Virus record (IMG/VR): IMGVR_UViG_3300020045_006384
Location: 36,001-100,000 of that record
From: a virus
Length of the DNA: 64,000 nucleotides
Strand: one strand, 5' to 3'
In this document: positions 1,367 to 51,320 of the stretch, piece by piece
Numbering within the stretch: position 1 is the stretch's first letter
Layout of the letters: each line of letters opens with the position of its first letter
The notes under the pieces: model-generated
What the model was told of the DNA's origin: nothing
Databases searched by the model: none
Seen by the model: the letters and a program-made list of their open reading frames with translations, nothing else
Translations under genes and position numbers: made by a program

Positions 1367-3376
1367 ATGGATAAACAAAATTTTGTTTATGACCTAGAAA
1401 CATATCCTAATATGTTTCTAGGCGTATTCAAATCATTAAAAACAAAAGAATATAAGTATTTTGAAATAAGTGATAGAAAAAATGATATTAATGAACTAAG
1501 ATTATTTCTAAAAAATAATGTAAATGGTCTTATAGGTTTTAATAATATTAATTTTGATTATCCTGTATTACATAATACTATATTAAGCAACAATAAAAAT
1601 TGGACTTCTTATGAAATTTATGAAGAAGTTAAAAAAATTATTTCTAATAAATATTCTAGTATTTGGGAAAATCTAGTTAAAATACCACAATTAGATTTAT
1701 ATAAAATTTGGCATTATGATAATAAAAACAAATCTACATCATTAAAATGGTTAGAATTTGCAATGAGATTACCTAATGTTGAAGATTTACCATATGAAGT
1801 AGGTACTATACTTACTTCAGAACAAATGGATGATATAATTTCTTATTGTAATAATGATATTGATGCTACTGAAAAATTTTATAATAAATCTATAAAACAT
1901 ATTCAAATTAGACAATTCTATACAGAACATGAAGATATTAATCTTATAAATGATTCTGAAATTGGAATGTCTAAAAAGATATTTGGTAAGTACTTATCTA
2001 AAGAAATGAAAATTCCTTTTAAAGATTTAAAAACTTTAAGAACCTACAGAAAAAAAATTCATATTAATGATATTATATTTGATTATATTAAATTTAATGA
2101 TCAAATTAATAATGATACTTTAAAAAAATTTAAAGATTCTGTATGGGAATATAACTTAGATGAAGAAAAAGCTTTAAGTAGTATTAGTTTTTCTGTTCCT
2201 TATAAAAATGTTGTAAGAGAATATGCTGAAGGTGGTTTACATAGTTTTGGTAAAGCTGGTATATATGAATCTGATGATGAATATGTATTAGTTGATGTAG
2301 ATTTTGCTTCATATTATCCTCATATTTCTTTTAGAAATAAATTACATCCACAACACATTCCAGAACCAATTTTTAATAAAATATATGAAGGTTTTTATAC
2401 TGATAGAAAAAAATATAGTAAAAAAGATCCTCGTAATTATGTGTTAAAAATTATTCTTAATGGTAGTTATGGTTTATCTAAAGATAAGCATGCTTACTTG
2501 TATGACCCTAAATGGCAATTAGCAATTTGTATTAATGGTCAATTAATGTTAACTTTATTAACTGAAAGAATATTTGAAAAATGTAAAATAGAACCTAAAA
2601 TTATTTTTGAAAATACTGATGGTGCTATGTACAAAATTTATCGTTCTGATATGGAATTACTTAATCAAGCTTGTAAAGAAATTGAAGAAGTTGTTAATAT
2701 ACCTTTAGAAACACAAATATGTGAAAAAATAATTATTAGAGATGTTAACAATTATATAAATGTTGTTGATAAAAATAATATTAAATTTAAAGGTGTATTT
2801 GAAATTGATCGTGACTATCATAAAAATCATTCTAAAAGAATAGTTTCAATTGCTTTAGCAGAATATTTCATTAATGGATTAGATGTTGATAAATATATTA
2901 AAACATATTTAAAATCTAATTCAGTTGCAATAGTTAAAGAATGGAATTATAATGCTGAAGAACCTGATTTTTACGAACACAATGGCATCTATGATTTCTG
3001 CTTAGGAGCTAAAATGAAAGGTTCTAATAGATTAATTAGTAAAGAGTGGATAGATAACACATCTGTGCATAAAAAGTTGCCTAAAATGACACGTTATTAC
3101 GTATCTAATAAAGGTGTAGAACTTATTAAAACATTAGCACCATTAGAAAAAAACTTTTTAACTGAAACTGATAAATATAAACTTAAAGTTGATGCAAATC
3201 AAATGAATATATTTGATGTAGTTGAAGATATAAAAGTTGATCCAACAGATAGAGAAGAAAATCTAGAATCTGGATATAAATGTACAGTTTTTAATAAATA
3301 TATTGACGATAATTATGATTTAAATTATGATTATTATATTAATGAATGTAATAAAATTATTAACTTAATAAAATAA
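1367..3376 (+). CDS. polB: DNA polymerase, family B, with 3'-5' exonuclease domain
   Basis: Exo motifs YDLET, GFNNINFDYP, YCNNDI; polymerase motifs DFASYYP, KIILNGSYG, NTDG. Confidence 0.93.
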   Translation: MDKQNFVYDLETYPNMFLGVFKSLKTKEYKYFEISDRKNDINELRLFLKNNVNGLIGFNNINFDYPVLHNTILSNNKNWTSYEIYEEVKKIISNKYSSIWENLVKIPQLDLYKIWHYDNKNKSTSLKWLEFAMRLPNVEDLPYEVGTILTSEQMDDIISYCNNDIDATEKFYNKSIKHIQIRQFYTEHEDINLINDSEIGMSKKIFGKYLSKEMKIPFKDLKTLRTYRKKIHINDIIFDYIKFNDQINNDTLKKFKDSVWEYNLDEEKALSSISFSVPYKNVVREYAEGGLHSFGKAGIYESDDEYVLVDVDFASYYPHISFRNKLHPQHIPEPIFNKIYEGFYTDRKKYSKKDPRNYVLKIILNGSYGLSKDKHAYLYDPKWQLAICINGQLMLTLLTERIFEKCKIEPKIIFENTDGAMYKIYRSDMELLNQACKEIEEVVNIPLETQICEKIIIRDVNNYINVVDKNNIKFKGVFEIDRDYHKNHSKRIVSIALAEYFINGLDVDKYIKTYLKSNSVAIVKEWNYNAEEPDFYEHNGIYDFCLGAKMKGSNRLISKEWIDNTSVHKKLPKMTRYYVSNKGVELIKTLAPLEKNFLTETDKYKLKVDANQMNIFDVVEDIKVDPTDREENLESGYKCTVFNKYIDDNYDLNYDYYINECNKIINLIK

Positions 3377-19129: not shown

Positions 19130-21196
19130 ATGATAAATATAATATTAATACTTTTATTATTCCAAATTCTTGGTTTAATAATATTTAAACCAAAACATAA
19201 TACATTAGGTTGTGGTATTTTTGCATGGGCTGGAAGTAGTCCAAAATCTTTTAACAAAGCAAAATTTGACATTTTAGGACTTTATAATAATTCCAGAGGT
19301 GGTGATTCATGCGGTGTTACAACAGATGGTGAAATTTATTATGGATTAGCAACCAATAAAAATTATTATGATTTTTTAATAGAAAAAGAATATTTGAAAC
19401 CAAAAGAAGTACCTGTTGTATTTGGTCATACTAGAAGACTTAGTGTTGGAGTAGCTAATGAATATAATGCACATCCTTTTGGGTTTGGTGAATTAAATGA
19501 AGGTTATTCTTTTATAGGTTGTCATAATGGTACATTAACAAATCATAGTGATTTAGCAAAAGATTATGATGTAACAGTTGATTTATGGGAATTAAATGAA
19601 CATGGTGCTAAAGGAAAATGGATCCGTAGTAAAAATGATTCAGAAATCTTATTAGAATGTATTTATAATTCTAAAGATATTAAAGTTTTAGATTCATATA
19701 TTGGTGGTGCAGCTTTAATCTTTCAAGATTTAAGTGAACCTGATACAATTTATGCATTTCATGGTGCTTCAAGAAAAGAAACTGGAGATACTAATCCTGA
19801 TAAATTTGAAGAAAGACCTTTATATTATTATAAAGAAAGTAAAAATTCTCTTTATATATCTTCTTTAGAAGAACCTTTAATAGCAATTGGTGGAAAACAA
19901 GATAAAAATATTTTTGAATTTAAACATAATATTGTTTATAAAATTAAAAATGGTGATATTGATTCTGCAATTACTTATAAAGTAAACAGAAACGAAGCTG
20001 CTCAAAAAAAATCATACTCAACAGGACATAATAAAAATTTTACTATGGCTCCTATGACGAGGAAGATACATTCGGCCACGGCCAATTGTACCTTGGACAT
20101 GGTTATGACTAAAAAAAGGAGCCCTAAACAATCAAAATTAAACTATAAAGTATTAGATAATTCTATTATTACAAATATTTATGATGAAACAGATGATAAA
20201 TATTTTAAATCAGGAATTAATTTTAGAAACTTACGTTACAGAAGAAATGGTCATTTAATTGAAGGTGTATATACTTTTATATTTGGTTATGGTTTACTTT
20301 ATATATCAGATGATCCAGTTAAAGCTATGGCATCAAGCTATGAATTTTTAGATAGATTTTTTGATATGGAAAAAGGTAGATTTTTAAATGGTACAGAAAT
20401 TCCAGATTTTAAATCAGGTAACGTAGTTAAACCTTTTACATTTAAAAAACAAATAGACCCGCCTTTATTATATTTTTATAAAGGTATAATGCTAGAAACT
20501 TTAATGGATTATGAAGCTGTTACTAATAAATTTAAAGATAAATTTACTTTTTTAGATTTATCAGAAATGGCAAAACATCCAATTATAGATATTAGTAAAA
20601 AAAGAAAACCTGATCATAATCAAGAAATTACATATAATAGATTACCATGTACTAAAAAACATTCGTTTCTTCAAAGTGGTAAAATTTATAATATTGAAAA
20701 AGGAAACTTAATTAATATTGAAATATGTGAAGATTCAATTGATTTATTAGAAAATACAACACCACCAATTCTTTTAGGAGAAAGTTCAACAATTAAATTA
20801 AATAGTAATGAGATTACTGATAAATCAGAAATACCATTTAAAATTTATCAAAATAATGAATTAAAAAAATTAGGTGATATATTTGAAGTTAATCAAATTA
20901 AAACTGAACATTTTATTGATGCTAACGATATATTTTCTGATGTTGAAATTATTAACAAAAATTCTGAAATTAATGAAGATCCTGAAATTGAAGAAGAAAT
21001 TGAATATAATTCTGAAATAAAAGATACTCTTGAATCTGAAATGATGAATGTTTATATAACAGTTCAAACTGCAAATAATAATTTAGCAAAACATTCTGCT
21101 AATTCTGATGTAGTAACAGATGTTATGGAAGTTAATAATGATTATTTAATGAATTTAGATTCTTTAATTATTGATAAAATAGGAAATAATAAATAA
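19130..21196 (+). CDS. class II (Ntn) glutamine amidotransferase with hydrophobic leader and long C-terminal extension
   Basis: CGIF at residue 28, RGGDSCG, GHTR, NAHPF, HNGTL, DSE, ERPL. Confidence 0.9.
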   Translation: MINIILILLLFQILGLIIFKPKHNTLGCGIFAWAGSSPKSFNKAKFDILGLYNNSRGGDSCGVTTDGEIYYGLATNKNYYDFLIEKEYLKPKEVPVVFGHTRRLSVGVANEYNAHPFGFGELNEGYSFIGCHNGTLTNHSDLAKDYDVTVDLWELNEHGAKGKWIRSKNDSEILLECIYNSKDIKVLDSYIGGAALIFQDLSEPDTIYAFHGASRKETGDTNPDKFEERPLYYYKESKNSLYISSLEEPLIAIGGKQDKNIFEFKHNIVYKIKNGDIDSAITYKVNRNEAAQKKSYSTGHNKNFTMAPMTRKIHSATANCTLDMVMTKKRSPKQSKLNYKVLDNSIITNIYDETDDKYFKSGINFRNLRYRRNGHLIEGVYTFIFGYGLLYISDDPVKAMASSYEFLDRFFDMEKGRFLNGTEIPDFKSGNVVKPFTFKKQIDPPLLYFYKGIMLETLMDYEAVTNKFKDKFTFLDLSEMAKHPIIDISKKRKPDHNQEITYNRLPCTKKHSFLQSGKIYNIEKGNLINIEICEDSIDLLENTTPPILLGESSTIKLNSNEITDKSEIPFKIYQNNELKKLGDIFEVNQIKTEHFIDANDIFSDVEIINKNSEINEDPEIEEEIEYNSEIKDTLESEMMNVYITVQTANNNLAKHSANSDVVTDVMEVNNDYLMNLDSLIIDKIGNNK
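20035..20123 (+). other. candidate programmed -1 ribosomal frameshift signal
   Basis: In-phase A_AAT_TTT heptamer (20035-20041), 5-nt spacer, GGCTCCT/AGGAGCC stem (20047-53/20117-23) enclosing a further hairpin; -1 frame open for 23 codons to TAA 20110-20112. Confidence 0.62.
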
Positions 21197-21197
21197 A

Positions 21198-23156
21198 ATG
21201 GAAGATAAAATTGTAAAAAATATTGAAGGAATTGAAGTTCCTGAAAGTACATGCCGATTAATAGATGGACAATATTATTCAATTGGTGATATATATAAAG
21301 AAAATTCTGGACAAATATATTTAATAAACAAAAGATATATTAGACCTGAAAATTTAGTATTTAATCACACAGTTGGTAAATATACACTTCCAAATGCAAA
21401 TTTAATTGAAGGAATAGTTAGATTTGAAGAAAACACGTTTATATATGGATTATTTGAAAGTAATCCATTATATAATATAAGATTGATTGATAGAAGTAAT
21501 AAATATCATTTATGTTTAAATAAACTTATAATTCCTTTAGATTATAGAGAAGAAAAAGCTACTGGTATATTTTATCATATTTCTATTAAAAAAGTAAAAT
21601 TATTTAATTTAATTAAAGATGTTACTAAAGAATATAAAGAATCTTTTCCTTATGATTCTAGAGGAATTACTAGTAAATTTTCTAAACAATTCCATGCTAA
21701 TTATAAACCTAATATTACTAAAAGTGTAAAAACTTATGCTCCTTTGCTAAAAGATTATACTTTTGGTTTAGAATTTGAAACAGTAAAAGGTATTTTAAGT
21801 GATGATATGTTAAAAGTATTACCTTTAATACCTTTAAGAGATGGTTCTATTAGTGGTTTAGAATATGTCACAATACCTTTATCTGGAGAAATAGGTTTAC
21901 AAGCTTTAATTGATTCTGCTTATCATTTAGAAAGTAAAACAGAATATAATACATCTTGTGCATTACATTATCATGTTGGTAATATACCTAGAACACCTGA
22001 ATTTTTATTAGCTTTTTGGAAAGTAGCTTCATTTTTTCAAGAAGAAATGTTTTCAATGTTTCCTTTATACAAAAAATATAATTTTGGTGTAAAAAGAAAA
22101 AACTATTCAAAACCATTTCCTATTAATAAAATTAATAGTTTATTAGATGCTTCAATTGATGTTAAAAACAAAGATCAAGTTAATAAAAACTTTAATGTAA
22201 TATTTAATTATTTATCAGAAGGTGTGCCATTTAGTGCATTTTCTAATAATTTAGATAATGTTAAAGAACATCCAAGAGATCCTAGTGGTAATCAAAAATG
22301 GAATATTAATACTAGATATTATGCTAATAATTTAATACCTATTATTTTTGGTAATAAACAAACTATTGAATTTAGAATTCATACTCCAACTTATGATATT
22401 GATAAAATTATTAATTTTTTATTAATTAATATTTATATTTTAGATTACACAGTAAATAATACTGAATTAATTTTAAAAAATTTTTCTAATGTTACCAGAT
22501 TAGATAATCTTAGAAATTTTATTGATGAATATCTAAAAAATGAAAAAAGATTAAAAAAAACTGAAAAAAATAATTTATTAAATTATCATATTTCTTATAT
22601 CAATACTAGAATAAGAAGATTGGAAGAATTAAATTCTCAAGGTAAAATTCAAGGTGATGAAGATTTAATATATTGTAATAAAAGTATTAGATGGAATCAT
22701 ATTGATACTAAAGAAAATACTAAAAGTCTTTCTAATTTTAATGATTATAACGATAGTTATAAACCAAATAGAAATGGTAATGGTAGAGAACCAATGCGTT
22801 ATACACCTAAATCTTTTCAATCTGCAGTAGCAAGAGATATTTCAAAATTAGTAATAGATGAAAATTTTTCTAGTCCTAATAATACATCTAGTGTTAAAAA
22901 ATCACTTCATAAACCATTAACTGTAAATAAATCACCAAATACATTTAGTGTAGATGATTCTTTAGAAAGATTTTATTTTTCAGAAAGAAAAATTGAATTA
23001 GATAGAGCTGTAGAAAGATTAAAACAAGAAACACATGAATCACAAGTTAGTTTTAATATTAAATATGGTAATTTTGGAATGGAAACGAAAACAGAAGATC
23101 CATCAATGTTTTTTGATACAGAAATTAATTTAAAATTAAAAGATGACCAGTTATAA
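21198..23156 (+). CDS. putative amidoligase (Amidoligase_2-like)
   Basis: FGLEFE, RDGSI..LEYVT, CALHYHVG, RY, TIEFRIH. Confidence 0.88.
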   Translation: MEDKIVKNIEGIEVPESTCRLIDGQYYSIGDIYKENSGQIYLINKRYIRPENLVFNHTVGKYTLPNANLIEGIVRFEENTFIYGLFESNPLYNIRLIDRSNKYHLCLNKLIIPLDYREEKATGIFYHISIKKVKLFNLIKDVTKEYKESFPYDSRGITSKFSKQFHANYKPNITKSVKTYAPLLKDYTFGLEFETVKGILSDDMLKVLPLIPLRDGSISGLEYVTIPLSGEIGLQALIDSAYHLESKTEYNTSCALHYHVGNIPRTPEFLLAFWKVASFFQEEMFSMFPLYKKYNFGVKRKNYSKPFPINKINSLLDASIDVKNKDQVNKNFNVIFNYLSEGVPFSAFSNNLDNVKEHPRDPSGNQKWNINTRYYANNLIPIIFGNKQTIEFRIHTPTYDIDKIINFLLINIYILDYTVNNTELILKNFSNVTRLDNLRNFIDEYLKNEKRLKKTEKNNLLNYHISYINTRIRRLEELNSQGKIQGDEDLIYCNKSIRWNHIDTKENTKSLSNFNDYNDSYKPNRNGNGREPMRYTPKSFQSAVARDISKLVIDENFSSPNNTSSVKKSLHKPLTVNKSPNTFSVDDSLERFYFSERKIELDRAVERLKQETHESQVSFNIKYGNFGMETKTEDPSMFFDTEINLKLKDDQL

Positions 23157-23811
23157 ACTAGAAATTGATTATTCTTTATTAATGGGTCAATGGTCAAGTT
23201 TACTACCAATTCTACAAACTGAAAGTATGTATAATTTAATGTTATCATTACATGAAAATTATAAAACTAAGAAAGATTATTATCCTGCAAAAAAAGATAT
23301 TTTCAAAGCATTTAAAGATGTTAGATTAAATGATATTAGTGTAGTAATAATTAATTGTCTTCCTAGTTTTAATCATAGAAGTAATGGACTAGCTTTTGCT
23401 AATAAAGATAATTATCATGATGATTTTGATCCTACACTAGTTAATTTATTTAACGGTATAGAAAATCATATATGTGGAGGTCTTAAAATTAACCATGATT
23501 ATACTTTATCACATTGGACATCTCAAGGTGTATTTTTATTAAATACAGCTTTAACAGGTACTAGTAAAAAACCAGATGTAACAGAATGGTCAGAATTTAT
23601 TGATTATTTTATTTCATATTTAAATGATATGTTAGTTCATTCAGGTGTAGTTTTTGTTTTTATAGGTGATAATGGTACACATTATATTAATAAAATTAAT
23701 CAAAGAAAACATAATGTTTTACAATTTCAAACTCTTAATGTCGACGCGTTAGAAGATATTAACCAAGAAATTACAGAACAAAATGGTAGAGAATTTAGAA
23801 TTCAATGGTAA
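23143..23811 (+). CDS. uracil-DNA glycosylase family-1-like protein, active site degenerate
   Basis: YP..DIFKAF, VVII, GLAF, L.HW..QGVFLLNTALT retained; GQDPY replaced by NCLPS and HPSP absent. Confidence 0.78.
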   Translation: MTSYKLEIDYSLLMGQWSSLLPILQTESMYNLMLSLHENYKTKKDYYPAKKDIFKAFKDVRLNDISVVIINCLPSFNHRSNGLAFANKDNYHDDFDPTLVNLFNGIENHICGGLKINHDYTLSHWTSQGVFLLNTALTGTSKKPDVTEWSEFIDYFISYLNDMLVHSGVVFVFIGDNGTHYINKINQRKHNVLQFQTLNVDALEDINQEITEQNGREFRIQW

Positions 23812-26071: not shown

Positions 26072-27058
26072 ATGAATTTAAGTTTAGATAAAAAAATTTT
26101 AAGCGATATTACAGTATATTCTAAATATGCTAAACATCTTCCAGAATTGGAAAGAAGAGAGAGTTGGGAAGAATTAGTTGAAAGAAATATGCAAATGCAT
26201 ATAAAAAAACATCCAGATATTAAAACACATATTGAAAATGTTTATAAAAATTTTGTTTTAACTAAAAAAATTTTACCATCAATGCGTAGTTTGCAATTTG
26301 GTGGTAGAGCAATTGAAATGAATAATAGTAGAATTTATAATTGTGCATTTTTACCAATTGATGATATTCGTAGTTTTAGTGAAACTATGTTTTTATTATT
26401 AGGTGGTACTGGTGTAGGTTATAGTATTCAAAATCATCATATTGATAAATTACCTGAAATTAGAAAACCTAATTATCAACGTAAAAAAAAATATGTAGTT
26501 CAAGATTCTATTATAGGTTGGGCAGATGCTGTAAAAGTTTTATTTAAATCTTATATATCTGGTGGTAATCATATTGAATTTGATTTATCAGATATTAGAC
26601 AAAAAGGTGCATTATTAATAACTGCAGGAGGTAAAGCTCCAGGACCAGAACCACTTAGAATTGCTTTAGTTAAAATTGAAGCAATATTAAGAGAAAAAGA
26701 AGATGGTTCAAAATTGACTGATATTGAATGTCATGATATAATGTGTCATATTGCAGATGCAGTTTTAGCTGGTGGAATTAGAAGAGCCGCAATGATTAGT
26801 TTATTTGATTTAGATAGTGATGCTATGCTAAACTGTAAGTCTGGTAATTGGTGGGAAAATAATCCACAACGTGGTAGATCAAACAATTCAGTTGTTTTAT
26901 TACGTCATAAAATTGATAAAAAAACTTTTGATAAAGTTTGGGAAAGAATTGAAGCTTCTGGATCAGGTGAACCAGGTATTTATCTTACAAATGATAGAGA
27001 TTGGGGAACTAACCCCTGCTGCGAAATAGCGTTGCGTCCGTACCAGTTTTGTAACCTT
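26072..27058 (+). CDS. nrdJ: class II (B12-dependent) ribonucleotide reductase, exon 1
   Basis: KYAK, RESWEE, PSMR, NCAF, GTGVG, RRAAMISL, GEPG, TNPCCEI, FCNL; interrupted directly after CNL. Confidence 0.92.
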
Positions 27059-27349
27059 TAAGATTCTAGGAGGTTGTAAAAGACAGAGAATTGCTGGGAT
27101 ATCTAAGTAATATAAAATAGAACAAGGGTGTGGGTTTGATTCCCACCTGGCGTCTTTGGCGTCGGTATCATGTAGAAATTCACCTATTTTATATTATATG
27201 ACAATCAGCAGCCGAGCCCTACAAGGGAAGGTTCAGAGACTATCCGTAAGGAGTACACTCAAGTGAGTGGAAGCACTGTCCACTATTTATAGTGATGATA
27301 TAGTCCGAACTGCATAGAAATATGCAGATGGGTAAAATAAATAACATTT

Positions 27350-34915: not shown

Positions 34916-37900
34916 TTATTTATTCAATAGGTTGTAGAGATTTTTATATTCTTTATCTAATTGAGCGTAGAAAGGAGTTATTTTTTTAACATGTTTTACT
35001 AATACATTGTTATGTTTTGAATCTTCACTAAAATAATCAAAGAAAGTTTCATTTCTTTGAGGATTAAAATTAATAGGTGTTACAATATCATTTACTACAT
35101 TTGCACAGTTTTGAATAAATCTGTTAGCTGCAACTGGATTAGCAATCATTCTTTGTAACTCCATTGGGTTTCTAAATTGTGAAAGTTCTGATTCAAGTCT
35201 TCTAAAAGCATACATTGCAAAAAATAATTCATTATCATCATCTCCTGCAGCGGCACCAATCATCATACCTAATAAAGGAAGTATAACCATAGTTAAACAA
35301 ATCTCTAATGTAGTATTTTTTAGATTAGCTTTTTCATAATCAGATAAACTATTATAATTATCTATCATATAAGCTAATTGCAGCCCTTTTAAAGAAGGAA
35401 TTACACCTTGGCTTATAAAACGTATGAATGTAGTATAAATACCTTCTGTAAACTCTTGTTCTGCATTATTAAATGATATATCATCTTCAGTTAAATCTTC
35501 TTTAGCTGTTAATGATGTTTCAATTCCTTTATATCTATGTTTTAAAGAAGATAAAAAGAAGTTTTTAAACATCATTAGTGTTTTACCCCACCAAGTTTTA
35601 GCAATTTCAGCTTTCATTAATGGGTCATATACACCAAATATATCATGAGCTTTCTTTTTAATTACATAATTGATATGTTGTTTACCACCTTCATGATATT
35701 TAGAATCAATATTCTTTTTAGTATAAACAACTTTATCACTCATAACAAGTTTACCATCAGAATTTAATGATAACATATCAAATAATGAAGCTGCATTTAA
35801 TTCTTCAACTACAATTCCTTCTTTATTAATATATTTTCTTTCAGAATTCATAACTTTAATACCTCTTAAGATAGATTCAGTTAATACAGCATTCATCATA
35901 TGCTCACCCATTTCATTTAATCCATTCATTGAATGAGTTGAAATGATTTTTTTAGCATAACTATTGCGTATAAATTCTTGAGTAGCACTATCAAATCCAC
36001 CAAATATATCAAACATATCTAACATTTGGTTATGAAATGATTGTTTAACAGGTTGATTTAAATCAGCTAATATATTCATTATATTTTTACTATAATGAGC
36101 TTCAGCTTTTAATAAATCTGTTTTATTAAATGTATATCCACCAGCAGAAGTTAAAAACATTTGAGTAACACCATTTAATACATTGACAACTCCTGAACCT
36201 AAGTTAGCAGTCATTGCAATATTTGCAGCAAATCCATTTACCATAGATGCTAATTTACTTGCTTCTAATTTTGAACCAAATACTTTACCACCACTATAAG
36301 ATAAAACATCATATAAATGAGTTTCTAAAAGACCTTCAATTTTTTTAAGTTCTTGAGAAAACTCACCACTAAATGTAGTTCCTGGAGCATGTGTTGCATA
36401 TTTATTTTGTAACCATTTACCAGTTTGAATAGAGCGTTTTTTATATTCTTTAGATGAAGCTATATCTACAAATAATTTAAGTTTTATTTCATTAGATTTC
36501 TTTTCTTTATAATTAATTGCATTTAAAGCTTCTTTTCTATATACAGTAAATAAATCTAAAGATTGATCTTTTGAATCAAGTTTACCTCTAAATCCAATTT
36601 TAACAGTTCTTTTCTCTTTGTTCTTACTATCTACAGCTTCACCATAATTTACATCATCAACTTTAACCTCTGTTAAATCAGTCCATTTATCTTTTAGTTG
36701 ACCTTTAACATCACCTTCAAGTGTTCTTTCTAAATTAGATTTAGTAACAGAAGGAATTTTGTAAAATTTAGCACCATATACAGATTTAACTAAACTAACA
36801 TGATTATTATAAACAGTTACATTATTATTATCTGTTTCAGATTTAAAATAATCTAATAATTCTTTTTCAACACCTGTAACTTCAGCATTCTTGTATTTAG
36901 GATGTGGAACAGTTTTTTCATTAATAGAAATAGTATTAACACTAAACCAAGCTTTTCTTTTAGATTTTAAAGTTTTATATTCTGCATCTTTATTTAATGC
37001 TTTTAAAGCTTCTTTTTTAGTATCAAATTGTGAACTATATTTTTCTTTTAATTCAGTTATTTTATCTAATATAGGATATAATTCATTTTGAACAGAATCT
37101 AAAAATTTAGTAGAGTATTCTCCTTTTAAATAATATTGATCATTTTGACTTAATTCAATAATATTTCCATACATTTCAGATTGCTTATTTTGTCCTTTTT
37201 CTTTAGAATATTTTTTAAATATTTTATTTAGTTGGAATTGCTTATCATGATAAGCATTTATAATATTATCTCTCATTTTACCAATAGTATTTGATATAAG
37301 ATTGATTAATGGAGAATTTATATTTAAAATATCTGTAGTATTTCTATCAAATGTTGAAATATCAAAGTAAGGATCATATACAATTTTACGAGCACTTTCT
37401 CTTAAAGCATTTTGATAATCAGATTTATATTTTGTTTCAATCATTCTACCAAAATATTCTTCTTTAGTTTCAGATTTAATATTTAATTTAGCATGTTCTG
37501 AAAATAATTTATCTTTCCATTCCGTAACAACTTTAGTGTTATTTTCAGGTTTAGAAAATTCTGTAACAGCAAATGCTTTTTTAATATTTATAAATGAATC
37601 TGTTAAACTTTGATGACCATCTTTTAAATTATGTAATACTTTTTTAATTTCTTCAATTTGAACTTTATCTTTTCTTTCTAATGTTTTATCATTTTGACTT
37701 CTAGTAATTAAAGAATTAATTTCATCTAATAAATCATATGCTGATAAGTATTCTTCATAACTATCAACAAGTTTTAACATTTCAAAAGTATCTAAATCTT
37801 TTGTAGATAAATTATCTAAAGTATTATATAAATCATCATTAATATCTAAATTATTATCTTTAACTAATTCTTTAATAAAAGGATCATTTTTATATAATTC

Positions 37901-49800: not shown

Positions 49801-51320
49801 TCTAATAGTTCAGATTGTTGTTCTGTATAATTTAAAGCTTTAACAACTTCTCTTACTTTTCTATTATCTAATTTTCTTTTAGATGTAAATTGACCTTTAG
49901 AATTTCTTTCATAAATATATTTACCATTTTCATCAGTTTGATAAATATCATTATCAAAAGTTGTATTAAAATTAGTAATTTGTTTATCAATATTATCTAA
50001 AATTAGATTAGTATTTCTTCTATTTCTAACATCTGATTTTCTACCTTGGTATGACATCATTGGTCCGCCAATTGCTCCACCTAAAAATATTGCTTTTTGA
50101 CCTTCTGTAGTACTTACAGTATTAACATATTCTTTAGTAAAGTCACCAATAGAAGCATCATTTAAAAAACTTTTACCAAGTTCACCACGCATTGCTTTAT
50201 CAACGTACATATTTTCAACAGTAGTTTGAGAACCTTCTTCCCAAAAACCTTCTGTTGCAAATGCACCACCAACTCTACCAAGACTAACACCTACTCTTTC
50301 TGCAATAGCTTTTATACCTTTCTCTGTTGTTTTTTCAAATGTTTGAGAAGCTTTACCCCAAAGAGCTTTGTGCATTATAGCATTTGGTCCAAGTAATATT
50401 CCAACATTTGCTATAAAAGTATCTTTCATTGCAAGAGATCTTTGTTCAACAAATAATTGTTCAGCTTCTTCAGGAGTATAACCTTTATTAATATAAGTAT
50501 TTAAAAAGTCATCTTTTTTAGAATCTAAATCATCACCTACACCTTTTGCTTCAGCACCTGCTTCAAATATAGTATTTCCAAAAATAGCCATACCGCTATC
50601 AATATTTCTACCACTAACACCCATAAACTTTAAAGTGTTTACAGCATCTTCAGCTTTACCAACCATTGATGTATATTTAGCTAATTTAGAAGAATTAGCT
50701 AAGGTGTTAATTAATTTACCACCTAAACCTGCATATTGAAATATTGCTCCAGGAACAAACATTGCAGCAACGAAACCAATACCATCAGCGCCATCAGTTG
50801 CCCAAAATGAACTAGATGATATATTATCCCATAAGTTACCTTCTTTAACAGCTTTAGCAGTATAAACTGGTAATAAATCAGTATTTACTTTTTCATGTAC
50901 TTCATCTAATACTTTTATCCAACTATTATTAAAAGCAGTATCCATTCCTTTACCATCTTCTGCAAATGGTGCAGCCATAGAACCAACAATTACTCCAGGT
51001 AGTTTAGCTACTTCAGTTAATGCTTTAGAAGTAGCTCTACCAAGACCTTTTGTTAATTGTTCAGCACCAGATTGATTACTAGCTCTTATTTCATTATATG
51101 GATCTTCTGCATTTAAATCTACAAATTGATTAAGAAGTGGATTTATACCTTCTCTTAATTCATCTTGATTAGAACTATCAAAATTAATACGATGTACTTC
51201 TGTATCAAAAGCATTATTTGTAGCTAATTTTTTATTAGTAGGTGTATTAAAAGATTTATAGTTATTATCTAAAGACTTTAAAAACTTTTCATCATAACTA
51301 TTTAATTCTTCTTCTTCCAT
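46806..51320 (-). CDS. giant virion (cargo/ejection) protein with TM-like segments, coiled coils and an FtsK-gamma domain near the C-terminus
   Basis: 1504 aa; Gly/Ala-rich hydrophobic N-terminal part; ASANLIQRRLRLGYNRAATILEQLE.AGIIG...G...RKVL. Confidence 0.82.
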   Translation of the reverse strand: MEEEELNSYDEKFLKSLDNNYKSFNTPTNKKLATNNAFDTEVHRINFDSSNQDELREGINPLLNQFVDLNAEDPYNEIRASNQSGAEQLTKGLGRATSKALTEVAKLPGVIVGSMAAPFAEDGKGMDTAFNNSWIKVLDEVHEKVNTDLLPVYTAKAVKEGNLWDNISSSSFWATDGADGIGFVAAMFVPGAIFQYAGLGGKLINTLANSSKLAKYTSMVGKAEDAVNTLKFMGVSGRNIDSGMAIFGNTIFEAGAEAKGVGDDLDSKKDDFLNTYINKGYTPEEAEQLFVEQRSLAMKDTFIANVGILLGPNAIMHKALWGKASQTFEKTTEKGIKAIAERVGVSLGRVGGAFATEGFWEEGSQTTVENMYVDKAMRGELGKSFLNDASIGDFTKEYVNTVSTTEGQKAIFLGGAIGGPMMSYQGRKSDVRNRRNTNLILDNIDKQITNFNTTFDNDIYQTDENGKYIYERNSKGQFTSKRKLDNRKVREVVKALNYTEQQSELLDLAIESGNIDIVEKIKQDAIFNLITPAIFNGEAGLTALEQKLNADSKFNELIERDSVSDEKNKTKTFVKETLETARYLQEQNEKFTDFSKDVIQLENEKATPEQRTNFLNKLNTSYLNTKHVLRQLEKSLKTEEAKRNNILEEIGLENNLQTEDELLIKAETTNELLKQTNDKIREIESDIKDNKKSISEIWQGKLINKSFNDYIEAEETETKEVSEEKVLEAQEVLDTIKSFEDEEDLKNYFSKLPKSQKDNHIISEEVQEQFRKIKEAQALQKQINEVEALDKDKEKFEKDSIITTDTTPETKESVIESTVQGLETVQTSDNPEVDKSDNILDKSANGIQSVNEATNPTNVAKNQGAARIISTNLTTGQALFPNLESFVTYEKEPRDKTKDRVTFDVGNINPKNESFTANEIFKRIKNGETLTKDEIEYAAKYLPISVTLSNKGNSATSFIDSMSSQSPKIVEIETLPLRRSIINALIENKGSFDGIVGKVNKQFTGALKLGEQNSNILELDVFKGMSEEDKIKYFKKNTVYVTNKGEVKYTSNNVTDNTKVLSSSNKGEVFLKIPMINGEIFYLKLNTSRLSDEKAESVLDLIILRSNILNKQQEFNIDELEKYITDNLPSLLTEFNFVKNNNDSIDVTLEKVINFVVFSQNTNAKTKLILGNDGKLVLGELLHKVNSQIPEWSGQLESYTYTTDSLNNLDNNQKQAIVEYLKYKRHNVLITKDNSATFNNDDYIKYLLGINSDYAVLTTNAVVNEPTFQGYSNIYLDQTVVNKKAKKQVVAEETKEVKLDTTEDLLGSLEGMFGDDIVTTSTNIAPKPKSNTITENLNDTSDLKILPFVEIENIDENFEEVVKIFITEKQASANLIQRRLRLGYNRAATILEQLEIAGIIGEFDGSNSRKVLITDISQISNFINKTEISTPNIEVKTIKSNNLSDIFKDADAKTKAKIVAVIAKQLGMMDKVNPKDMTSSFNELFKELKDNETLQQEIKKICGL

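Follow-up and report, generated by a model that had tools for sequence, protein, structure and literature searches.

Does an amidotransferase gene of a crAss-like phage yield one protein or two? The gene in question lies in a 64,000-nucleotide (nt) stretch, referred to here as the window, which corresponds to positions 36,001 to 100,000 of the IMG/VR virus record IMGVR_UViG_3300020045_006384; the record is ∼100 kb long with direct terminal repeats, and the GC content of the window is 24.7%. Read in its own (zero) frame, the gene encodes P0001, a fusion protein in which a hydrophobic leader of 27 amino acids (aa) precedes an N-terminal nucleophile (Ntn; class II) glutamine amidotransferase domain. 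A disordered linker joins this domain to a C-terminal one of unknown fold, and the protein ends in an acidic/helical tail. An initial annotation of this DNA proposed that a −1 frameshift in a GC-rich island directly after the amidotransferase domain gives rise to short and long forms of the protein. Judging from sequence comparisons, we put the probability that the linker of this fusion gene carries a programmed −1 ribosomal frameshift cassette at roughly 0.7. The gene and the elements of the candidate cassette are as follows.

19130..21196, plus strand: zero-frame gene P0001, 688 aa, from the open reading frame (ORF) translation
20035..20041, plus strand: slippery heptamer A_AAT_TTT, in phase, AAA/AAT/TTT encoding K302 N303 F304, with AAT (Asn303) as the P-site codon and TTT (Phe304) as the A-site codon
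20042..20046, plus strand: spacer of 5 nt, read from the sequence
20047..20053, plus strand: 5′ arm of the closing stem, GGCTCCT, within zero-frame codons for M-A-P-M, pairing perfectly with the 3′ arm
20058..20095, plus strand: inner GC-rich hairpin inside the loop, CGAGG/TACA/GGC-CACG-GCC/TGTA/CCTTG, present in the minimum free energy (MFE) and centroid structures
20041..20112, plus strand: −1 frame that would be read after a slip, 23 codons (YYGSYDEEDTFGHGQLYLGHGYD) and then TAA at 20110-20112, the stop lying inside the loop, upstream of the 3′ arm
20117..20123, plus strand: 3′ arm of the closing stem, AGGAGCC, within zero-frame codons for K-R-S-P, from the predicted fold

The heptamer, stem, inner hairpin, −1 frame, and GC island were found letter for letter as the initial annotation had described them. 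The island has a GC content of 0.46 over 85 nt, a level reached at only four places in the 64 kb, and the GC content of third codon positions (GC3) is 0.40 in the linker versus 0.06 in the rest of the gene, so that the GC excess falls mostly at synonymous sites. When codon positions were read against the predicted structure, the rare G/C-ending codons proved to be mostly paired in the inner hairpin. The fold at the site has an MFE of −23.6 kcal/mol, with z = −2.2 to −2.8 against dinucleotide shuffles. The −1 frame ends before the C-terminal domain, which begins at residue 344, as in a truncating frameshift of the dnaX type, and the predicted short product comprises 304 + 23 = 327 aa. The sequence AGGA is present at 20023-26, 8 nt upstream of the heptamer; the Bacteroidota hosts of crAss-like phages make little use of Shine-Dalgarno pairing. 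An intrinsic terminator at the cassette was ruled out, there being no U-tract 3′ of the 3′ arm, as were transcriptional slippage (the runs comprise just 5 A and 4 T) and a second shift at the −1 stop that would restore frame 0 (GAC_TAA gives no re-pairing). Rfam gave no match to the GC island of the gene at E ≤ 10 and no family anywhere in the window at the gathering score.

Taken from this genome alone, the cassette does not rise beyond chance; it is the comparative data from related phages that lift it above chance. We assembled the DNA of 27 distinct related genes and built a protein tree with FastTree. Eight loci, representing about six lineages, carry an in-phase heptamer at the codon that aligns with F304, and these form one clade on the tree. 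The sequence is A_AAT_TTT in the window, L003, L039, L007, and L012 and G_GGT_TTT in L005, L040, and L041. The expectation that the heptamer would be conserved was thus borne out, as it is kept at the homologous codon in 8 of the 9 loci of the window's clade. Taken by itself, A_AAT_TTT is uninformative about conservation beyond the protein sequence, and it is the G_GGT_TTT loci that provide this evidence: the first G of their heptamers belongs to a rare codon (GCG, GCG, and TCG), and the joint chance of the heptamer, computed given the amino acids and the codon usage of each gene, is 0.012, 0.052, and 0.040, respectively.

A stem of 7 to 11 base pairs was found in 8/8 heptamer loci, beginning 4 to 7 nt after the heptamer, and in every one a conserved helix G follows the heptamer at a distance of exactly two codons (6 nt). 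When the stem score was ranked among in-phase positions of the same gene, the sites fell within the top 0 to 5.5% (P = 0.033, 0.016, 0.020, 0.012, 0.011, 0.008, 0.000, and 0.055). At the aligned site in the 20 loci without a heptamer, stem P values were 0.11 to 1.0, the sole exception being L048 (0.029). The folds of L003, L039, and L041 gave shuffle z values of −4.3 to −4.8. The arms read GGCTCCT/AGGAGCC, GGTCCTTC/GAAGGACC, GGTGGGAC/GTCCTGCC, TGGTGGGAG/CTCTCACCG, GTGGGAAGAAT/ATTTTTCCCAC, and AAGGTGG/CCACCTT in the different lineages; their sequences vary while complementarity stays. Helix columns 17 to 24 of a codon-anchored alignment are paired in 6 to 8 of the 8 sequences, and by a count with our own script, both partners of the standard pairs change between sequences in 6 of the 8 core helix columns, which agrees with the predicted stem covariation. 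The further prediction of suppressed synonymous variation held clearly for one pair of loci and modestly for the others. In L003 and L039, nucleotide identity is 96.8% over the 31 codons from the heptamer compared to 81% gene-wide, the best window in the gene, and synonymous-codon identity is 0.96 at the site compared to 0.74. The other pairs showed a small excess with small n. Taken together, the sites display the sequence features of canonical −1 frameshifting: an in-phase X_XXY_YYZ, a spacer, a stem with covariation, and conservation of site and phase.

The −1 frame itself also has a conserved character. Its stop lies inside the loop in 8/8 heptamer loci, leaving tails of 23 codons in the window and 9 to 17 in the relatives: YYGSYDEEDTFGHGQLYLGHGYD; SQRSFEYPDEYQYGYD(Q); LHGWDGYWD; YDWWEGYCCDY; FYGWEEYWGYD; FKRWFNEYYDY; and FQRWSECFYD. 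These tails are aromatic/acidic, nearly without K, R, or N, and end in YD, WD, DY, or YDQ. In heptamer-less loci, the −1 frame closes within 0 to 7 codons, except in Cellulophaga phage phi14:2. We evaluated the enrichment of D/E/Y/W/F against a stricter null in which zero-frame residues were fixed and synonymous codons were redrawn with the local third-position composition kept; P was 0.003 to 0.17 per locus. A Fisher combination done by hand over seven lineages gave ∼2e-5, a value to be read with the relatedness of the lineages and the constraint that the stem also places on codons in mind. Within the clade, the count of D/E/Y/W/F in any 11 residues is at most 3 in zero-frame linkers versus 5 to 9 in −1 tails. 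About 60% of other family members carry 5 to 10 such residues in frame at the same place, e.g., CGYEWD, GYGSGWEEYDDYP, and EYLDDDDWEDYRGY. We infer that an ancestral in-frame motif may now reside in the −1 frame of the heptamer clade, where it would be reached by slippage.

The proposed mechanism would run as follows. The stem that starts 5 to 6 nt downstream would hold up a ribosome whose tRNA-Asn and tRNA-Phe sit on AAT and TTT, respectively, and a fraction of ribosomes would slip back one base onto AAA_TTT. These ribosomes would read 23 codons in the −1 frame and terminate at TAA 20110-12 inside the loop, giving the predicted junction peptide ..NKNF-YYGSYDEED.. / ..NKNF-YYGSYDEEDTFGH and a 327-aa product made of the leader, the amidotransferase domain, and the aromatic/acidic tail. 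Ribosomes that do not slip would produce the 688-aa protein with the extra domain of unknown fold. Both slippage at some efficiency and a function of the tail are what we infer from these patterns.

Several observations weigh against programmed frameshifting. The clade has a single cassette origin, and the eight loci therefore amount to about six related lineages rather than independent trials. L006, which is sister to the window's group and thus nested among the heptamer loci, has lost the heptamer, the stem, and the GC-rich codons (L006:2356-2520); it provides a natural comparator for cassette loss, and because of this nested locus the cassette is dispensable. The 3′ arms were chosen as the best partners, a procedure that favors pairing and that the per-gene null corrects in part. 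The open length of the −1 frame is mostly unremarkable given the zero-frame residues (P = 0.08 to 1.0), and when L040 is compared with L041, more of the zero frame than of the −1 tail is kept (by eye, 7/13 versus 3/11 residues). Shift efficiency could be negligible. The H_HH.U_UU.Y class, which includes A_AAU_UUU, is among the most efficient motifs in E. coli (Sharma et al., PMC4066793); G_GGU_UUU is outside the top class in E. coli and high only in eukaryotic assays (PMC4066793, PMC5009743). These efficiency classes are those of E. coli, and frameshift rules may differ in the host of this phage, which is probably a member of the Bacteroidota. Finally, a census of in-phase X_XXY_YYZ in window ORFs of at least 100 aa returned 284 heptamers, 17 of them A_AAT_TTT, and for 15 of the 284, a suitably spaced stem scored at least as well as the one described here. 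These counts are what would be expected if an AT-rich, heptamer-rich genome had by chance placed one heptamer before a GC-rich, self-complementary patch. Chance does not explain why eight related loci share site, phase, spacing, and pairing on differing stem sequences, nor why these features are absent at the aligned site in 19/20 others, and we regard it as scarcely credible.

Another possibility is that the structure and the many rare codons of the linker mRNA have a purpose other than recoding, either to slow ribosomes at the domain boundary, for example during folding or self-processing of the amidotransferase, or to serve mRNA stability or processing, with the heptamer a by-product of a conserved N-F or G-F dipeptide. 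The disordered linker does lie exactly between two folded domains, most G/C third positions in the window's linker fall in predicted helices, and linker GC3 is also raised in most relatives, some without the heptamer among them. Moreover, at the A_AAT_TTT loci the heptamer is expected from the x-N-F peptide and AT-rich codons at 0.3 to 0.8. What a model without recoding leaves unexplained are the retention of the first G of G_GGT_TTT through rare GCG and TCG codons, the confinement of strong stems to heptamer loci at a fixed 6-nt distance, and the resemblance of the aromatic/acidic −1 tails to the in-frame motif of relatives; we consider it unlikely. Alternatively, the −1 frame might be an untranslated relic, in which two indels moved an ancestral in-frame motif out of frame and left a tolerable linker, so that decaying ancestry coincides with an unrelated RNA stem. 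Outgroup lineages with the motif in frame, the derived position of the heptamer clade, and the tolerance of a disordered linker for indels all agree with such a history. Proteins of the clade are only 41 to 60% identical, however, with synonymous sites near saturation, and yet the −1 composition, heptamer phase, and stem persist; at a GC3 of 0.06, D/E/G codons, which begin with G, would be expected to disappear from an unselected frame. A relic thus appears very improbable.

Sites of a different type occur elsewhere in the family. In the sister clade (L008:2424, L009:2424, L010:2424, and L011:2412, with a matching site in L044), the aromatic/acidic motif is in frame (CGYEW..EWEDLR), and an in-phase A_AAA_AAG (S-K-K) follows it directly in 5/5 loci; the −1 frame is 13 codons long and strongly basic in each of them. 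At 5 to 8 nt downstream there are short stems rich in GC, and these are varied yet complementary (GGAC/GTCC, GGA/TCC, AGGGG/CCCCT, and GGAG/CTCC); they were not significant by stem score. The gene family may thus have a second frameshift site in this A_AAA_AAG. In phi14:2 g040 (L001:6810), an in-phase A_AAA_AAG is located in a longer Thr/Ser/Asn-rich linker. After it come the GC-rich GAAACGGGCGAGG and a basic −1 frame of 18 codons, with no significant stem downstream (P = 0.12).

As for what the tail in the proposed short form might do, a role as docking or acceptor peptide is favored, since a motif like it is found in frame at this position in many relatives. The initial annotation's suggestion that the isoform ratio sets subunit stoichiometry in the amide-ligase system is unsupported. 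A bolder proposal is that the frameshift exposes the acidic/aromatic peptide (..GYD, ..EYYDY, ..GYWD) as a free C terminus, which could be a docking site or acceptor for the neighboring ATP-grasp, COOH-NH2 ligase, and amidoligase proteins. Through recoding, what was an internal motif in the ancestral fusion would become a terminal substrate or scaffold, and the A_AAA_AAG sites of the sister clade would be a second, independent release of the same module. We view this proposal as decidedly doubtful. If frameshifting does occur, it would illustrate how evolution can transfer a conserved peptide motif out of the main frame and into a recoded one. A short isoform with a conserved tail would also offer a handle on the product and target of phage amide-ligase/amidotransferase clusters, both as a peptide for partner pulldowns and as a testable mutant. 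The gene would also have to be annotated with two products, and relatives with an F-x-x-G-[GP] zero-frame linker would merit a check for the cassette; ∼25 further protein clusters show this linker pattern.

The predicted arrangement resembles E. coli dnaX tau/gamma (A_AAA_AAG plus a stem-loop; PMC5009743, PMC6771820), where the full-length protein is also encoded in the zero frame and a −1 slip yields a truncated isoform without C-terminal domains. It differs from dnaX in its heptamer (A_AAU_UUU or G_GGU_UUU), in its tail of 9 to 23 residues with conserved make-up versus one residue, and in the protein concerned, a phage amidotransferase instead of a clamp-loader subunit. In E. coli copA/CopA(Z), a shift at a domain boundary likewise releases the N-terminal domain as a separate small protein (PMC5009743). 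The gene family and slippery site are different here, and in the predicted short form the catalytic domain is retained, with a distinctive tail added. Among phages, lambda G/GT and T7 10A/10B are canonical −1 frameshifts that fix the ratio of two products of one gene. Both of these extend a virion or assembly protein, whereas the shift proposed here would truncate a metabolic or modification enzyme. A literature search found no recoding described in this gene family or in these clusters, in line with the initial annotation. If the proposed shift is real, a nonstructural enzyme of a crAss-like phage would join the short list of truncating frameshifts, known examples being dnaX and copA. The only cultured-phage homologue found was phi14:2 g040, annotated as an "aminotransferase" (YP_008242264); it is fused in the same way (29% identity over the full length), is flanked by the same neighbors (COOH.NH2 ligase, amidoligase, UDG-like protein, and RusA), and lacks a heptamer at the aligned codon.

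The domains of P0001 on either side of the candidate site are given below, with the predicted local distance difference test (pLDDT) and predicted template modeling (pTM) scores of the models.

19211..19999, plus strand: Ntn amidotransferase domain, about residues 28-290, catalytic Cys28 (Pfam/PHROG, alignment, model pLDDT mostly 70-94)
20009..20164, plus strand: interdomain linker, residues 294-345, predicted disordered (pLDDT ∼25, alignments, codon-position GC)
20159..20719, plus strand: C-terminal domain, residues 344-530, in the long zero-frame form only (alignment; modeled alone, pLDDT 92.4 and pTM 0.87)

The assignment to the class II amidotransferases is predicted from a catalytic Cys placed to become N terminal and a match of residues 95-242 to PF13522 GATase_6 (32.3 bits against a cutoff of 27). 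C28, R56-G62, H100, and N133-G134 are invariant in the family alignment. Cys28 comes after the 27-aa leader in P0001 and after the initiator Met in some relatives. The leader (19130-19210), which AlphaFold models as a helix, has a similar counterpart in several relatives; others are called from Met-Cys. Its presence before Cys28 implies predicted processing or membrane tethering of the Ntn enzyme. AlphaFold places the GC island in the disordered linker between the two folded domains, and the linker is poorly conserved as protein, being the least conserved region family-wide. The model of the C-terminal domain had no Foldseek match in the Protein Data Bank (PDB) at E ≤ 0.001 (best VIA Z 2.2), and no Pfam family matched it. 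The fused architecture is common to more than 340 homologues of 600 to 700 aa, and more distant homologues are all 440 to 800 aa long. A search for naturally split, amidotransferase-only genes returned only short proteins that were ambiguous or apparently cut by contig ends. The closest protein relative, P0002/P0122, is ∼87 to 88% identical; its DNA was not found in metagenome or viral contig collections. The phage genome collection contained no near relative by DNA, and genome contigs added no locus. A lake-water contig obtained from sequencing reads, ∼91% identical, spans the whole gene, with listed indels only at 20764-20819.

By Pfam and PHROG matches, the gene neighborhood begins with two class I amidotransferases and a COOH.NH2 ligase; next come the class II amidotransferase fusion and an Amidoligase_2 protein, and then a UDG-like protein and RusA. 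The five genes from the COOH.NH2 ligase to RusA are present in identical order in phi14:2 (Crassvirales, Steigviridae; g039-g044), where the cluster is preceded by genes for a gamma-glutamyl cyclotransferase and an ATP-grasp ligase. The earlier label of a phiEco32-type cluster agrees with the Pfam/PHROG matches to the genes; the phage itself is crAss-like. The UDG-superfamily protein (window 23143-23811) adjoins the amidoligase and scored 21.3 bits, below the Pfam cutoff of 24.3; its position is kept in phi14:2. The presence of a UDG-like protein together with the ligases hints that the cluster may act on DNA bases, not on protein.

No tRNA was found in the window. The only other stretches with a GC content of at least 0.46 over 85 nt are located at 26954-27298 and 50719-50803. 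The latter lies in a minus-strand ORF of 1504 aa and encodes a Gly/Ala-rich hydrophobic segment; its GC3 is only 0.14, and the island is amino-acid driven. At window 1378-1425, an A_AAT_TTT occurs four codons from the start of the ORF 1367-3376. After it comes a perfect hairpin of 13 bp (CCTAGAAACATAT/ATATGTTTCTAGG), which has the best stem score among all in-phase heptamers of the window. The −1 frame there closes after 2 codons, and this structure is more likely a regulatory hairpin at the start of the gene.

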